Source: a virus
Taxonomy: Duplodnaviria > Heunggongvirae > Uroviricota > Caudoviricetes
DNA: 9,346 bases
Strand: one strand, 5' to 3'
Virus record (IMG/VR): IMGVR_UViG_2778261360_000018
Shown here: in pieces, positions 2,796 through 8,472 of the stretch
Layout: each line of letters opens with the position of its first letter
Numbering within the stretch: position 1 is the stretch's first letter
Notes under the pieces: generated by a model
What the model was told of the DNA's origin: nothing
Databases searched by the model: none
The model's input: only the letters and a program-made list of their open reading frames with translations
Translations under genes and position numbers: made by a program

Positions 2796-3677
2796 TTACA
2801 TAGATGTTTCGTTTAATTCTTCCCGGCGAACGCTGTAAACGTCGGTGGCTTTTGCCAGCAGTTCGTCATCATCTGAAAGTTTTTGTGCAATGTATTTGTA
2901 AGCCTTATCTAGTTCGGAGACAGTGCTGTAATTCATCGCTGCGCTGGTAAAGGCCATCAGCATTTCTTCTGGATCACGGCTATCCGCTTTACGCGTTTGC
3001 TCATCAGGCTTTTTCACTGTTTTAGCGTTGATCAGACTGTTCATTCCCGCAGCAGTGGTCGTTTGCGGAGTAATGTCTCGCTCAACGCGCGGTGCCGTTT
3101 CCTGTAATTCGTCTGGTGTGTAAACACCGAGAAGTACATCAGGAGCGTGCAGGCGAGCCCATCGTTTCGTGCAAAGATAGGCAAGCTGCTGGCGCGGATC
3201 CTGTTCCCACAATGGAGAGTTACGCACTCCGGCTTGCGCCATACTGATGGTAAGCTCACGTGGTTCTGCTTCTCCTTTAAGAACTGCTGACACAGTTACC
3301 GTCAGATTAGGTGATTTATCTGTTTTGCCGTTAACATTCGACCAGTCACCGCTCCAGCGATAATTCAGGCGTGTCGCCAGCAGGCTGGAAGAGGATACGA
3401 CCGCGTTTACCAACTGTGCTTCGTAGCCTAACGTTCCGTTTACCACATGCGTTTTCTGCGCCACGGCGAACGGGTTCATTCCCCACTGTGCCGCCTGCAT
3501 GGTCACCGCCAGGCAATCGGCAGGTTTGCCTTCAAGATGTTTCGGTACAGTTGCTTTGCTTTGTGACATCAACTCCGCGAAACGCACCAGTTGATTCATG
3601 CCCTCGGGGCTGAAGATTGCCGCAGCAGTGCCTACAGTTGCGCCTGGTTGTGATGTGATTGCGATATCATTGCTCAT
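2796..3677 (-). CDS. Single-strand annealing recombinase, RecT/Red-beta (Bet) family
   Basis: 293 aa. By recall of lambda Bet, shares short motifs: ERDITPQ (lambda ERDITPV), GMNPF (lambda GLNPW), WEQDPRQQL (lambda WQSHPKRML). Start overlaps the upstream exonuclease stop (ATGA at 3674-3677). Confidence 0.7.
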   Translation of the reverse strand: MSNDIAITSQPGATVGTAAAIFSPEGMNQLVRFAELMSQSKATVPKHLEGKPADCLAVTMQAAQWGMNPFAVAQKTHVVNGTLGYEAQLVNAVVSSSSLLATRLNYRWSGDWSNVNGKTDKSPNLTVTVSAVLKGEAEPRELTISMAQAGVRNSPLWEQDPRQQLAYLCTKRWARLHAPDVLLGVYTPDELQETAPRVERDITPQTTTAAGMNSLINAKTVKKPDEQTRKADSRDPEEMLMAFTSAAMNYSTVSELDKAYKYIAQKLSDDDELLAKATDVYSVRREELNETSM

Positions 3678-4495
3678 ACATACATATCCTGTTTACGTGC
3701 CCAGTCAGGGCGTTTAATAATTTCCACTCCGCCCCATTCATCGTTGATGCGGCATTCGTGATAGGTATTCAGATCCCGGCGGAACAGAGCGTGCCCGGCA
3801 TCGACATCCGGCGCATCCAGCTCGAACACGCGTACCGGATACCGACCACAATCAATGCTTTCGCTCACGGCAAGAAAGAAAAAACCATGCGGCTGACCAG
3901 TAACCCTCATTGCGCCTTCGCGGTACATTGCGTCCTGCACGTGGTAGCGGAATTCCTCGATGTGACGTGCAAAACGGTCCATATCTGCAACCTTTTTCAC
4001 GTCGACGATCACGTTGTGCTCGTTCAGCCATTTGTCTGGACGAATTCGGCACAACTCACCAGTCTCTTCATCGTTCCAGTACATTGACGCTTCGCAGTAA
4101 CCAGGTGCTTCCAACATCCAGCGTGCAGCCGGGTGAGCCATTGCGCTATCACGCATCAGCTCCAGTTTTCGCCACTGCTCGACATCAAGTACCGTAATAC
4201 CCATATCCGCCACATCACGAAGAAATGCTTCTTCGTCAGCTTTACCTTGTTTTGTCCGACGATCGAATTTCGGTGAAACGATGAAGCGCTTGTCGAATTC
4301 TCCAGGTTCCAGAAGCAGACAGTGCAATGCGGTTCCCATATCCAGTGCAGACTTTTTCTCTTCGTCTTCTGGTGCTGCCTGAACCCATTTAAGAAGCGCC
4401 GGATTCTTGGCAACCATGTCCAGTTGCGACTTACTCACGCCGTCACCGGCGTGGTAGTCTTCGTTGCTGATGTCGAAATAAATTCCCGGTTTCAT
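3674..4495 (-). CDS. PD-(D/E)XK-family exonuclease (RecE/exodeoxyribonuclease VIII-like, DUF3799-type), partner of the annealing protein
   Basis: 273 aa. N-terminal GIYFDISNEDYH, then D/E-rich blocks and IVDVKK resembling PD-(D/E)XK nuclease motifs. Coupled to both neighbours by ATGA overlaps (4492-4495 and 3674-3677). Shine-Dalgarno AGAGGGA upstream. Confidence 0.7.
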   Translation of the reverse strand: MKPGIYFDISNEDYHAGDGVSKSQLDMVAKNPALLKWVQAAPEDEEKKSALDMGTALHCLLLEPGEFDKRFIVSPKFDRRTKQGKADEEAFLRDVADMGITVLDVEQWRKLELMRDSAMAHPAARWMLEAPGYCEASMYWNDEETGELCRIRPDKWLNEHNVIVDVKKVADMDRFARHIEEFRYHVQDAMYREGAMRVTGQPHGFFFLAVSESIDCGRYPVRVFELDAPDVDAGHALFRRDLNTYHECRINDEWGGVEIIKRPDWARKQDMYV

Positions 4496-4952: not shown

Positions 4953-5043
4953 TTACCTCGGTTTGTTACCGTTGAGGTAATAATTATGCGTATTTGGTTT
5001 GATGTCAATAGATATGAGTTAAAAAAATTACCCGTTAGGTAAT
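4953..5043 (-). promoter_or_regulatory. pL/OL-like leftward early promoter with two operator palindromes
   Basis: Minus-strand perfect -35 TTGACA (plus 5003-5008) with an AT-rich -10 candidate near 4980-4988. Palindromes gTTACC-gttga-GGTAAT (4965-4981, over -10/+1) and ATTACC-cgtta-GGTAAT (5027-5043, upstream of -35). Longer 7-bp arms TTACCTC/GAGGTAA at 4953-4959 and 4974-4980. Confidence 0.5.
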
Positions 5044-5099: not shown

Positions 5100-5684
5100 T
5101 TATTGTTTGTTTTTTTCGTTCTGGTTGATGACAAATTCAATGTAACTTTCGATCTTTGCCTTCTCTGTTTCAGGTAACAATGCGTAGCGCGAGCGATCAT
5201 AGTTGATGGTCGCAGGGTCGTGCGGGTGAATCAGTAATTCATAGCCGTGACGCCCGAATGCGGATGCAACATTCTCCAGGGTGGAAATGGAAACGCTGAC
5301 CTCATTGTTTAACAGGCGGCTGATTGTCACCTGGGCGACGCCGGATGCGCGGTGTAGTTTTCCCTGCGTTGAAAGGTCGCGGCTTTCGCTCATCCAGCGT
5401 TCCAGGTTGTGAGCCGCCAGCTGTCCAATGTCGCTTGGGCCGACAGGCTGAAAACCTTCCTGAGAAAGCGAGCGATCGATATCAAGCCAGTTACGGGGTT
5501 TATTGGCGGCAGCTTCAATTTTTCGCGCAACCTGGTCGCCGATAACCTTCTTGCCAAGAGCCCAGCGGTTTACCAGATTTGCCTGAGTTCCAAGTTTTTC
5601 TGCCATCCGCGTCTGAACACCATTGAATTCACGGTCGATCAAGTCGTTGAGATTTTGCCTGCGGACGTCCTGAATACTTTTCAT
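5100..5684 (-). CDS. Prophage immunity repressor, CI-like by position; two XRE-type HTH domains, no S24 peptidase domain
   Basis: 194 aa. HTH 1 about residues 20-65 (VQTRMAEKLGTQANLVNRWALGKKVIGDQVARKIEAA); HTH 2 about residues 105-150 (LSTQGKLHRASGVAQVTISRLLNNEVSVSISTLENVASAFG). No LexA/CI-type autocleavage module. Divergent from the cro-like gene across an operator-rich region; poor Shine-Dalgarno, as for lambda cI from PRM. Confidence 0.75.
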   Translation of the reverse strand: MKSIQDVRRQNLNDLIDREFNGVQTRMAEKLGTQANLVNRWALGKKVIGDQVARKIEAAANKPRNWLDIDRSLSQEGFQPVGPSDIGQLAAHNLERWMSESRDLSTQGKLHRASGVAQVTISRLLNNEVSVSISTLENVASAFGRHGYELLIHPHDPATINYDRSRYALLPETEKAKIESYIEFVINQNEKNKQ

Positions 5685-5738: not shown

Positions 5739-5813
5739 ATTACCCAACGGGTAAATGCACCCCATAGGTAACTATCCTTGATTTTTGTTACCTTATGGGT
5801 GAATATTTATTAT
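5739..5813. promoter_or_regulatory. OR-like divergent promoter/operator region between the repressor and cro-like gene
   Basis: Three related palindromes: ATTACC-caacg-GGTAAA (5739-5755), gcACC-ccata-GGTAAc (5757-5772), TTACC-ttatg-GGTgA (5788-5802). Candidate rightward promoter -35 TTGTTA (5785-5790), 17-nt spacer, -10 TATTAT (5808-5813). Confidence 0.5.
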
Positions 5814-5838: not shown

Positions 5839-6069
5839 ATGAGCGATAACGGACATTTCGATTTCAAAAAGCACTGGCTTGCACTTACTCCGGATGAGCG
5901 TGAAGCCTTCGCACAGGAAGCCGGAACGACGAGTCACTATATCCAGACTCACTTAACAGGTAAGCGCAAAATGCCAGGTAAGGTATTGATGAATGGGCTT
6001 TTTAAAGCCTGTAAAACAAGACAATGGCTGCGCTCAAAAGCAGAACTGGCATACTTCTTCTACTCATGA
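5839..6069 (+). CDS. Cro/CII-like small HTH regulator, first gene of the rightward operon
   Basis: 76 aa. LTPDEREAFAQEAGTTSHYIQTHLTGKR is HTH-like. Sits where cro sits in lambda. Weak Shine-Dalgarno CAGG 8 nt upstream. Confidence 0.55.
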   Translation: MSDNGHFDFKKHWLALTPDEREAFAQEAGTTSHYIQTHLTGKRKMPGKVLMNGLFKACKTRQWLRSKAELAYFFYS

Positions 6070-6090: not shown

Positions 6091-6114
6091 AGACCGCCAT
6101 CCGGCGGTCTTTTC
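6091..6114 (+). terminator. tR1-like intrinsic terminator candidate after the cro-like gene
   Basis: Stem AGACCGCC / GGCGGTCT (6091-6098 / 6103-6110), loop atcc, followed by TTTC. The U-tract is short, so termination may be partial. Confidence 0.45.
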
Positions 6115-6219
6115 ATATCTATTCGCACCTTAAAGGTAATAAAAAACCAAATATGGTTGATCTTTTTTTTGTGTCAGCACAAAATAACCGTAATCCCAAT
6201 ACTAATAACAGGGCTTACC

Positions 6220-6420
6220 ATGGAAATCATTACACGTATTGATGCCGCAAAGCGCGGACTTAAACGCTACTACACCGGAAAAACATGTAAGCACGGACAT
6301 GACAGTGAACGCTGGGTTTACAACGGACACTGTGTTGAGTGCACCATGGAATCAAACCGTCGTATCAGGGCAGAGATTAAGCAGATCATGATTAATTCCT
6401 CCCCACAACATTCAAGCTGA
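6220..6420 (+). CDS. Small Cys/His-rich putative zinc-binding protein (66 aa), in the cII position
   Basis: MEIITRIDAAKRGLKRYYTGKTCKHGHDSERWVYNGHCVEC... with C-x-H-x-H-x9-H-C-x2-C spacing. ATG at 6220 chosen over the track's 6157 start, whose N-terminal extension is hydrophobic junk. Family not recognised. Confidence 0.5.
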   Translation: MEIITRIDAAKRGLKRYYTGKTCKHGHDSERWVYNGHCVECTMESNRRIRAEIKQIMINSSPQHSS

Positions 6421-6435
6421 TAGCGGAGATTAATC

Positions 6436-7227
6436 ATGAGCAGACATGCAACAGATTGGGCCTGGGAGACAGATCCAGGTAGCTCGTCATTAAAGCTCAT
6501 ACTGCTCTCGATGGCTGACAGAGCCGATGAATATAACCTTTGCTACCCCAGCATAGAACGCCTCGTTAAAGACACTTGCCTGAATAAAAAAACCGTGCAG
6601 GCCGGGCTTATATCGCTCATGAAAATGGGGCTTATTTCAGATACCGGAGAGAGAAAGGGAGCGACGAAAAGAGTGCGGGTTTTCTCTCTTAATATAACCA
6701 AAAACGGGAACATTAAAGGCAACCGGGAAGGGGGTAATGAACCCGAAAACGGTAATGTTACCGAAAACGGGAATATACCCAAAAACGGGGTGTTGAATGA
6801 TCCCAAAAACGGGATCCAGAACCAGTCATATAACCAGTCATTTAACCAAGAGAGGGAGAGCAGGACAAAAAGCGGGGATTCTGTGCCTCATGACCCCGGC
6901 GCAAACAACGCCGTGATGAATAACTTTGTTTCTCCTGGTGGGCCAGGGCAATTAGGCAAATTTGTCATGCATGAACAATGGCAGCCATCAGATGACTTTC
7001 TTCGGAAAAGCTCATTGCAGGGGATCTACCTGGACAGTCTGCCAACGGCACAGGAACTTGCAGAGTTCAGAATTTACTGGATGGCTGAGGGTAAGGCATA
7101 CCATCAGGCACAGTGGGAGCAGAAGCTGGCAAGGCGGCTGCAGATTAGCAGACAGAAGCAATCAACATTACCTGATAACAACGTTCCGCACTGGAACAGC
7201 CCTGAAGCGTGGGAGGATTTCTTGTGA
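6436..7227 (+). CDS. Replication initiator, lambda O-like (N-terminal winged-helix, low-complexity linker, C-terminal DnaT-like region)
   Basis: 263 aa. N-terminal LKLILLSMADRADEYNLCYPSIERLVKDTCLNKKTVQAGLISLMKMGLI is HTH-like; central N/G-rich linker is encoded by DNA iterons; C-terminal QWQPSDDFL...EFRIYWMAEGKAYHQAQWEQKLARRLQ. Located directly upstream of the P homolog. Confidence 0.75.
   Translation: MSRHATDWAWETDPGSSSLKLILLSMADRADEYNLCYPSIERLVKDTCLNKKTVQAGLISLMKMGLISDTGERKGATKRVRVFSLNITKNGNIKGNREGGNEPENGNVTENGNIPKNGVLNDPKNGIQNQSYNQSFNQERESRTKSGDSVPHDPGANNAVMNNFVSPGGPGQLGKFVMHEQWQPSDDFLRKSSLQGIYLDSLPTAQELAEFRIYWMAEGKAYHQAQWEQKLARRLQISRQKQSTLPDNNVPHWNSPEAWEDFL
6694..6847. repeat. Iteron array (putative replication origin) inside the O-like gene
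   Basis: Five direct repeats with core AAAACGG(G) starting at 6701, 6746, 6764, 6782 and 6806, with 18-bp periodicity for the central three; then a tandem CCAGTCAT(A/T)TAACC x2 at 6822-6847. Confidence 0.6.
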
Positions 7228-8009
7228 ACAACGTTTTTACCGCGATACAAAACCGTGACGGAGAAGCCCTTTCTCGCATGTCAGGTTATGAGCATCAGTA
7301 CGTCAACAATGACAATGTGGTGAACATGTCAGCAGAGAGGCTTGTTGATGCCCTTTTCAAACAGCTGAAACAACTGTTTCCGGCGGCAGTGGTAACCAAC
7401 CTGAAGACGCCAGAGCAGGAAGTAGCTGCAAAACAGCAGTGGATTGCTGCGTTTGCCGAAGGGGGGATCCGAACCCGTGAACAGGTTTCTGCTGGTATGC
7501 GCCACGCCCGCGCCAGTGAATCTCCGTTCTGGCCGTCGCCTGGGCAATTCATCAAGTGGTGTAAAGACAGCAAGATGGTTCTTGGCGTCACCATTGACGA
7601 TGTGATGGCGGAGTTTCACCGGTACAGCAAGGAAAAAAGTTTATATCCTGGTGGTCCCGAAAGATTCCCGTGGCGGCATCCTGTTATGTACTGGGTCGTA
7701 TGTGATACCCGCCGTGCAATGTATCAGCGCCAGCTTAGCGAGATTGAGGTTGAGAAACACGCGTGCAGGCTGCTCGATGATTGGGCGAAAAAGGTGGCTT
7801 CCGGACAGCAGATACCCGATCCGGTGATCAGCATACAGGCAAAGTCAGAGCCCATGAGTACACCTCCGGACACAGGGAGAGACGTTTACCATCCACTAGG
7901 GCGAAGTTTCGGGTGCATGCCTAACGCCGCCACCCTTGGGGGAATAACACCGGCGCAGTGGCTGATGGAGGAATACAGGCGGGGAAAGGAGGCAGGATTT
8001 ATCAAGTAA
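7224..8009 (+). CDS. Replication protein P-like (replicative helicase loader)
   Basis: GGIRTREQVSAGMRHARASESPFWPSPGQFIKWCKD closely matches my recall of lambda P (NGITTMEQVNAGMRVARRQNRPFLPSPGQFVAWCRE); SLYPGG...FPW...YWVV also matches. Start assigned to GTG 7224 (GTGA overlap with the O-like stop, Shine-Dalgarno GGGAGGA at 7211-7217) rather than the track's GTG at 7209. Confidence 0.9.
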   Translation: MNNVFTAIQNRDGEALSRMSGYEHQYVNNDNVVNMSAERLVDALFKQLKQLFPAAVVTNLKTPEQEVAAKQQWIAAFAEGGIRTREQVSAGMRHARASESPFWPSPGQFIKWCKDSKMVLGVTIDDVMAEFHRYSKEKSLYPGGPERFPWRHPVMYWVVCDTRRAMYQRQLSEIEVEKHACRLLDDWAKKVASGQQIPDPVISIQAKSEPMSTPPDTGRDVYHPLGRSFGCMPNAATLGGITPAQWLMEEYRRGKEAGFIK

Positions 8010-8045: not shown

Positions 8046-8125
8046 ATTACCTGTTGGGTAATAAAATATTCTAAATTCTATTGATTTCGTGTCTTATGTG
8101 GTTTTTAATTACCTTAGGGGGTAAA
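8046..8125 (+). promoter_or_regulatory. Second rightward operator-flanked promoter downstream of P
   Basis: Perfect palindrome ATTACC-tgttg-GGTAAT (8046-8062) upstream of -35 TTGATT (8081-8086); 17-nt spacer; -10 TTTAAT (8104-8109) overlapped by ATTACC-ttaggg-GGTAAA (8108-8125). Same motif family as the OL and OR sites. Confidence 0.45.
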
Positions 8126-8127
8126 TC

Positions 8128-8472
8128 ATGAGAAAACAGATACAGGCTCTTGGTCGACTCAAAACAGGCCAGATGAACAAAACAGAATCTGCGTATTGCC
8201 AGCACCTTGAGCTGCGTAAACGTGCAGGAGAAATCGTCTGGTATCGATTTGAGGGTATCAAGCTGCGGTTAGCTGACAACACGTTCTATACGCCCGATTT
8301 TGCTGTGATGCTCGCCACTGGCGAGATGGAACTGCACGAAGTGAAAGGTTTCTGGACCGACGACGCCAGGGTGAAAACCAAAGTCGCCGCAGATCAGTAT
8401 CCGTTCCGAATCATCGGGGTAACGGTTAAACCAAAGAAAGCAGGTGGTGGCTGGAAAATCGAAGAGTTCTGA
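8128..8472 (+). CDS. Small PD-(D/E)XK-fold nuclease-like protein (VRR-NUC/DUF1064-like)
   Basis: 114 aa. FYTPDF ... ELHEVKG ... TDDARVK fits a D...(D/E)xK active-site arrangement. Shine-Dalgarno AGGGGG 6 nt upstream of ATG 8128. Confidence 0.55.
   Translation: MRKQIQALGRLKTGQMNKTESAYCQHLELRKRAGEIVWYRFEGIKLRLADNTFYTPDFAVMLATGEMELHEVKGFWTDDARVKTKVAADQYPFRIIGVTVKPKKAGGGWKIEEF

Follow-up and report, generated by a model that had tools for sequence, protein, structure and literature searches.

A small early protein of phiV10/epsilon15-type phages appears to be a nuclease-less copy of a predicted zinc module carried by HNH and endonuclease VII proteins

A gene in the early region of a phiV10/epsilon15-type (Uetakevirus) prophage encodes a basic protein of 66 residues, MEIITRIDAAKRGLKRYYTGKTCKHGHDSERWVYNGHCVECTMESNRRIRAEIKQIMINSSPQHSS, which includes the stretch KTCKHGHDSERWVYNGHCVEC. 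On the evidence of sequence homology, this protein appears to be a nuclease-less solo copy of a module that is arrayed N-terminally in HNH and endonuclease VII proteins, and it is likely derived from a homing endonuclease. In the fused nucleases the module most plausibly serves in recognition of the DNA target, and by analogy the solo protein is probably a small DNA-binding protein. Its zinc binding, DNA binding, timing of expression and actual role are inferred, and we favor one reading, at a probability of roughly 55%: that it would be a non-catalytic, domesticated DNA-binding factor acting locally on the early rightward/replication operon. The window referred to throughout is the whole stretch of 9,346 nucleotides that was analyzed.

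The gene occupies positions 6220–6420 of the plus strand (stop codon included), running from an ATG at 6220 to a TGA at 6418–6420. A first-pass annotation, made from the letters of the DNA, had reported a Cys/His-rich open reading frame of 66 codons here. Its translation was correct, and the frame is a genuine gene rather than a chance one, being conserved and under purifying selection. In particular, PHROG 1081 ("unknown function") aligns with the entire protein (E = 1.8e-42, residues 1–66 on profile positions 1–66 of 67). A Shine–Dalgarno-like AGGG (6210–6213, plus strand) lies 6 nt 5' of the ATG, and purine-rich, Shine–Dalgarno-like equivalents are likewise found in seven diverged relatives. 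Among seven orthologues sampled from phages and prophages of Escherichia, Salmonella, Klebsiella and Pantoea and from one metagenome, synonymous sites are saturated (pS 0.64–0.93, with pN 0.10–0.46), and dN/dS, where computable, is 0.05–0.45 and mostly at or below 0.2. The pI is about 9.5 for the window protein and 9.2–10.1 across seven orthologues. The orthologues all start M-[EK]-I-I-T-R, which reads M-K-R-I-T-Q in the epsilon15 subtype. Because the homologues align from this start, a longer frame of 87 aa that would begin at a TTG at 6157 was ruled out.

The gene is already catalogued, as phiV10 p42, epsilon15 gp40 and PHROG 1081, and no function is assigned to it there. PhiV10p42 is 98.5% identical to the window protein, and epsilon15 gp40, also an orthologue, is about 54% identical over residues 1–48; these are the same gene between the same neighbors, with a full-length HMM match and with entries that carry no functional annotation. 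DNA of the gene was found in 458 of 5,426 complete E. coli genomes, where it is always annotated "hypothetical protein", and the exact window protein occurs on at least 1,000 contigs. A word-indexed protein search with the window protein returned close orthologues only. The family comprises three allelic subtypes (phiV10-, epsilon15- and TL-2011b-type) that differ mainly in their C-terminal helix. Note that the records of TL-2011b and vB_EcoP_ZX5 have no feature annotated under the homologue, that the HEMP4 record is entirely without annotation, and that the TL-2011b copy (locus L089, 3501–3713) has a TTG start and is 70 aa long.

Comparison of 363 distinct module copies defines a conserved CHCC module that takes up residues 1–41 (6220–6342, plus strand). 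Cysteine 23, histidine 27 and cysteine 38 are conserved in 100% of the copies and cysteine 41 in 99% (codons 6286–6288, 6298–6300, 6331–6333 and 6340–6342, plus strand), whereas H25 and H37, although they add to the Cys/His-rich look of the protein, are conserved in 36% and 16%. Since these two histidines are poorly kept and the other four positions are near-invariant, the ligand set reads C-x3-H-x10-C-x2-C. That this pattern is 99–100% conserved over hundreds of diverged copies makes it very probable that the window protein binds zinc, in agreement with what the first-pass annotation had supposed. Moreover, A9, G26 and R31 are conserved in at least 94% of the copies and the stretch Y-[FY]-T-G is strongly kept; all residues of the flanking motif I-I-[ST]-R-x-[ED]-A ... 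G-L-x-R-Y-[FY]-T-G and of the ligand pattern are present in the window protein.

The AlphaFold2 model of the window protein had a pLDDT of 76 when the alignment held close orthologues only, and a pLDDT of 93.5 with a pTM of 0.70 when it held 73 sequences of diverse modules. In the model a short strand at residue 3 is followed by a helix (6–12), a strand (16–18), the loop that carries C23 and H27, a small hairpin and a helix (39–60), and C38 and C41 are placed at the N-terminus of this last helix. The predicted arrangement is a knuckle-hairpin-helix that resembles a treble clef, in which C23, H27, C38 and C41 presumably coordinate the zinc. Residues 42–60 (6343–6399, plus strand) make up the remainder of the predicted long basic helix and, in the alignments, are the part that defines the subtypes. 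The model found no structural match in the PDB.

To place the protein among more distant relatives, a profile was made from 21 orthologues and scored against 1.84 billion cluster representatives, 12,599 of which were matched at E ≤ 1e-3 and 1,287 at E ≤ 1e-10. Most of the top matches were proteins of 100–540 aa in which residues 1–50 of the query matched two to five times, and in this profile search those residues correspond to a single copy of a widespread module. Among 146 representatives that carry the module, the residues before the first copy never numbered 80 or more (0 of 146), a C-terminal tail of at least 80 aa was present in 89, a His-Me-type motif (DH..P...N..K) followed the last copy in 62, and 41 consisted of the module only. 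Pfam identified HNH in 36 and Endonuclease_7 in 18 of 145 module proteins. The module therein takes the form of one to four detected N-terminal tandem copies, with basic linkers, ahead of HNH or endonuclease VII domains, an architecture of the homing-endonuclease type that thousands of proteins from phages and bacteria display, and in sequenced phages it underlies genes annotated as HNH, endonuclease VII or homing endonuclease. DNA binding by the module is suggested by these tandem N-terminal arrays before nuclease domains.

The closest non-enterobacterial relative is a 226-aa protein of Vibrio phage 1.240.O; its N-terminus and the window protein share 62% identity over 53 aa, and its C-terminal part matches PHROG 1035 ("endonuclease VII"). 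Nonagvirus SE1 has a 162-aa module protein wedged among genes of the queuosine pathway, and Klebsiella phage KpV52 has a terminator-flanked module gene for 205 aa. The settings of these three genes are typical of free-standing homing endonucleases, and similar fusions of module and nuclease are found in HEG-like, free-standing positions of lytic phages. The window protein has no nuclease domain; it ends at residue 66, it gives no Pfam match to HNH or Endonuclease_7, and the initiator gene begins 15 nt past its stop codon.

An analogy for the role of the module comes from homing endonucleases, which, according to PMC5714182, carry modular DNA-binding domains. The known DNA-binding modules of these enzymes are likewise short, are single or in tandem, and are joined by linkers to an HNH or GIY-YIG catalytic domain. 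The Pfam models NUMOD, AP2 and HNH_repeat do not match the module described here, and there is no sequence relation to them; unlike the NUMOD/AP2-type modules, it has a predicted zinc-binding CHCC unit and stands N-terminal to the nuclease. Free copies of such modules can turn into regulators, as in plant AP2 proteins, and I-TevI acts as an autorepressor.

Searches of Pfam, NCBIfam and PADLOC with the window protein gave nothing but a spurious Pfam match to YneP (Pfam at E ≤ 1), and Pfam at the same threshold gave nothing consistent on 73 module sequences. Matches to NCD3G, Zf_WRKY19 and metallothionein in a few module proteins were set aside as Cys-rich noise. No match was obtained in the PDB by sequence search, whether with the single sequence or with the profile, and a full-text literature search for the motif strings returned irrelevant matches only. 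The abstract on vB_EcoP_ZX5 names as lysogeny-related proteins only ORF4, ORF12 and ORF21. In the keyword-bearing passages of a paper that classifies the His-Me finger proteins no such module is described. The HMM and structure searches that had been recommended for this protein led to PHROG 1081 and to the module family, and came back empty from Pfam, NCBIfam and the PDB. Clear homology to a characterized family with a known unrelated role had been named as a result that would speak against the first-pass proposal; the homology now found is clear, but the module itself has never been characterized. New in this analysis are the connection with homing endonucleases, the definition of the CHCC module family with its size, and the observation that Pfam, NCBIfam and the PDB contain no curated model or solved structure of it.

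The window starts with the GTG of a P4-type integrase gene (1–1251), and because it starts exactly there the integrase promoter and the attachment site lie outside it. Past the integrase, a leftward operon encodes RecT, a PDDEXK exonuclease and small ORFs. RecT and the exonuclease (DUF3799) are two ORFs (2796–3677 and 3674–4495, minus strand) with a 4-nt overlap; the phiV10 counterpart (L001, 516–2276) is annotated as a single fused RecE-RecT gene of 1761 nt. Next come a double-HTH repressor gene (5100–5684, minus strand) and a cro-like gene for 76 aa (5839–6069, plus strand; PHROG 35, E = 5.6e-13), which by synteny is the constant upstream neighbor of the zinc-module gene. The downstream neighbor in the window is a gene for a DnaT-domain, O-like initiator (6436–7227, plus strand; PHROG 1032, E = 3e-101), followed by a gene for a lambda-P-like loader (7209–8009) and a DUF1064 gene (8128–8472; PHROG 190 "Holliday junction resolvase", E = 5.6e-43). 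The initiator gene contains five iteron-like direct repeats of about 18–19 nt (6690–6813; core ACC[CAG]AAAACGG, 18–45 nt apart), which resemble a lambda-type origin and, at the protein level, specify an initiator linker rich in N, G and K. The first-pass annotation had placed the small gene after the cro-like gene and its hairpin and before the initiator gene, and this placement is confirmed in the window.

In the relatives the upstream half of this arrangement holds and the downstream half does so only in part. The gene directly follows the cro-like gene in 16 of 16 related loci, from at least 10 enterobacterial genera, whatever gene comes next. Nine of the 16 loci were retrieved through the cro-like protein (from Citrobacter, Erwinia, Kluyvera, Pseudescherichia, Buttiauxella, Pseudocitrobacter, Scandinavium and Klebsiella), and in these nine the next ORF is always a family member of 64–69 aa. 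The gene that comes after it is not always an initiator gene: it varies among initiators with different N-terminal sequence types, a C5-methylase and a phosphatase-like gene. Pairwise identity of the zinc-module proteins is weakly correlated both with that of the cro-like proteins (r = 0.22) and with that of the initiators (r = 0.32), and in TL-2011b the cro-like protein is identical to that of the window whereas the zinc-module protein is merely 50% identical. The gene is an independently exchanged cassette at a fixed position, and the weak correlations mean that co-evolution assigns it to neither the immunity nor the replication module. A scan of viral contigs for diverse orthologues yielded near-identical phiV10-type loci only, which were of no use for analysis of mosaicism. 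Note that a contig of very low coverage from a myxobacterial assembly, that of Corallococcus exercitus (L094, NZ_RAVW01000927.1; 408 nt, cov_0.75), bears a cro-like gene whose protein is 100% identical to that of the E. coli prophage; this match is almost certainly contamination.

Solo modules also adjoin replication genes in elements unrelated to this phage group. In locus L107 a solo module of 87 aa is encoded by the first gene of a rightward operon and overlaps the gene for a Phg_2220_C-type initiator, and in locus L106 a solo module of 96 aa comes after a DUF5906 primase. A DUF1064 gene is found downstream of the replication genes in L107 too, next to the solo module.

The DNA between the cro-like and zinc-module genes holds several candidate control elements. 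After the cro-like gene lies a GC-rich hairpin with a T-run (6091–6114, plus strand) that looks like an intrinsic terminator and is annotated as a terminator in phiV10. The hairpin (6091–6110) has a core, CCGCC-loop-GGCGG, that is conserved at the corresponding places in relatives (L002, L003, L086, L087 and L097–L099), and the outer pairs change on both sides. The T-run is missing from the epsilon15 and Klebsiella versions, and the hairpin may therefore not be a simple intrinsic terminator everywhere. Immediately beyond it is an operator-like site, GCACCTTAAAGGTAA (6125–6139, plus strand), of the TTACC-N5-GGTAA family, which is the prophage's family of repressor sites; the repressor sites of epsilon15 are annotated as ATTACC-N5-GGTAAT. 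This family has 10 matches in the window against 2.7 expected, a count that none of 200 shuffles reached. Sites of the operator family lie at 4966–4980, 5028–5042, 5740–5754, 5757–5771, 5788–5802, 6125–6139, 8047–8061 and 8109–8123. Of these, two are to the left of the repressor gene, three occupy the gap separating it from the cro-like gene and one stands just before the zinc-module gene, with a perfect copy at 8047–8061 between the P-like and DUF1064 genes. This placement suggests that the repressor controls several early promoters. The motif was also considered as a new site for the zinc-module protein and rejected, since the repeat, though significant, is the repressor operator family.

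A non-coding block 5' of the gene (6140–6195, plus strand) is kept in seven diverged loci; together with the operator-like site (6125–6195) it has stayed conserved there although blastn no longer detects similarity in the coding DNA on either side. It contains a palindrome, AACCAAATATGGTT (6145–6158, plus strand), that is single-copy and not above chance, as well as a −35-like TTGATC (6157–6162) separated by 17 nt from a −10-like CAAAAT (6180–6185, plus strand). The zinc-module and replication genes may thus have their own repressor-controlled promoter besides read-through from the cro promoter, an idea that we put forward as a hypothesis because both hexamers score 8 of 12, which is weak and falls short of the scan threshold. 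Upstream of int in phiV10 (L105, 2369–2384; about 26868–26883 of the phiV10 record) lies ATTACCTTAAAGGTAT, which overlaps a −10-like TATACT hexamer and has the 12-mer ACCTTAAAGGTA, spacer included, in common with the site at 6125–6139. From these sequences, int and the zinc-module/replication operon may be under common control. The search for a binding site gave no candidate that recurs or that varies in step with the three subtypes of the protein, and nothing similar lies upstream of the solo module of an unrelated high-GC phage.

The first-pass annotation had also raised the possibility of an alternative lysis-lysogeny regulator, and the position of the gene invites comparison with CII. Lambda CII and P22 C1 are, like the zinc-module protein, small and basic, and are encoded in the same place of the early rightward operon, between cro and the replication genes. 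An analogue of CII, made from the early rightward transcript, would activate the establishment of lysogeny by driving leftward transcription of the repressor gene and perhaps of int. Consistent with such an activity, the gene sits in the cII slot, from the cro-like to the replication genes, in all 16 loci, no other CII-like HTH gene was seen in the early rightward operon, a promoter-like CTGACA-16-CATATT on the minus strand (6177–6150) faces the repressor gene, and the site at 6125–6139 has a 12-mer in common with the upstream region of phiV10 int. However, the −35 of the minus-strand promoter is not kept in relatives, and the shared 12-mer belongs to the repressor-operator family and at int lies between promoter-like hexamers, which is the geometry of a repressor site and not that of an activator site. 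The protein itself is without CII homology: CII is an HTH tetramer whereas the window protein is predicted to be a zinc module with one long helix, and, as the first-pass annotation had held, it is not of the CII type, with no match to Phage_CII (Pfam at E ≤ 1, NCBIfam) and none in Pfam, NCBIfam or PDB sequences generally. Neither a CII-type direct-repeat site nor a conserved leftward promoter was found. Moreover, homologous solo modules adjoin replication genes in unrelated elements, and lytic phages, for which lysogeny does not matter, have fused copies. Position is the only feature that the zinc-module protein shares with CII in particular, and homology to the repeat modules of HNH and endonuclease VII proteins points to nucleic-acid binding generally and not to a CII analogue specifically. 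The lysis-lysogeny proposal finds no support here, and we regard a CII analogue as distinctly unlikely.

A replication accessory factor, which would bind at the origin or the initiator, or close by, and promote assembly or licensing of the phage replisome, is somewhat easier to accept, although still doubtful. In phiV10-type loci the gene abuts the initiator gene, in L087 and in the loci from Klebsiella and Pantoea the stop codon of the one overlaps the start codon of the other, solo modules lie against at least three families of initiator or primase (DnaT-type, Phg_2220_C-type and DUF5906), and the fused Vibrio relative is encoded just upstream of a DUF6291/DnaB block. Adjacency of this kind may nonetheless reflect ancestry rather than function, since free-standing homing endonuclease genes usually insert beside conserved replication genes, favoring the intergenic sites that flank them; in addition, a methylase or phosphatase-like gene intervenes before the initiator gene in epsilon15- and TL-2011b-type loci, and the zinc-module alleles track initiator type weakly. 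The same ancestry could have left a DNA-binding stump of an invading homing endonuclease, one that has no role for the phage or that persists by occupying or masking the target site of related nucleases. The closest distant relatives being full-length proteins with module and nuclease, the lack of a nuclease domain in the window protein and the exchange of alleles as an independent cassette all fit such a leftover. We consider it very unlikely because three observations argue against a decaying remnant: purifying selection is strong and synonymous sites are saturated, all 16 loci, from many genera, have retained the gene, and the C-terminal helix is conserved and subtype-specific; we know of no precedent for a target-masking role. 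A slimmer chance still is that the module is a finger for a host or phage protein, such as RNA polymerase, DnaB or a chaperone, and not for DNA, much as Ogr/Delta and other small zinc proteins of phages contact RNA polymerase. Several such proteins, P2 Ogr and lambda Q among them, work by binding to other proteins, and no DNA site was identified for the window protein here. Ogr and P4 Delta, together with Mu Com, are phage-encoded zinc proteins of about 60–75 aa with regulatory roles, but they are Cys4 proteins with a spacing unlike the CHCC of the window protein, and they are not known to be fused to nucleases. At E ≤ 1, Pfam gave no match to Ogr_Delta or zf-dskA_traR in the window protein or in the 73 module sequences, and N-terminal tandem arrays with basic linkers before nucleases are the hallmark of nucleic-acid recognition.

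We therefore return to a domesticated, non-catalytic DNA-binding factor as the preferred reading. According to this proposal, the gene would stem from a homing endonuclease module; purifying selection has kept it in one fixed location, where it follows the cro-like gene and opens the replication gene block of phiV10/epsilon15-like temperate phages. With one zinc module and one long basic helix, its product would be a small basic early protein that lacks a nuclease, binds DNA without cutting it and is made only when the prophage repressor is absent. Its local action on the early rightward/replication operon could be that of an accessory factor for transcription or for replication initiation, or that of an autoregulator. 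In a bolder version, the module by which a homing endonuclease recognizes DNA would have been captured and domesticated by the epsilon15/phiV10-type temperate phages and would now supply the early decision or licensing factor that they lack, either a zinc-finger functional analogue of CII or an origin/promoter switch, that acts on the block upstream of its own gene; we think this version improbable.

In about 8% of complete E. coli genomes, and in every Uetakevirus-type phage that was examined, this gene is present as a "hypothetical protein", and phiV10 and epsilon15 are in use as reporter, typing and structural model phages. The solo form is a practical way into a large family, whose zinc module occurs in over 12,000 protein clusters and has no entry in Pfam, NCBIfam or the PDB, and the module may show how one class of HNH homing endonucleases reads its targets. 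If it binds DNA, a compact, repeatable unit of about 45 aa would also be of interest to protein engineers. Should the solo protein prove to act as a regulator, phages would here clearly have recruited a module of a selfish nuclease for their own control, and the gap left by the missing CII homologue in Uetakevirus-type phages would be filled. The bolder version, if true, would provide a bacterial-virus parallel to the plant AP2 transcription factors, which descend from HNH-AP2 endonucleases.
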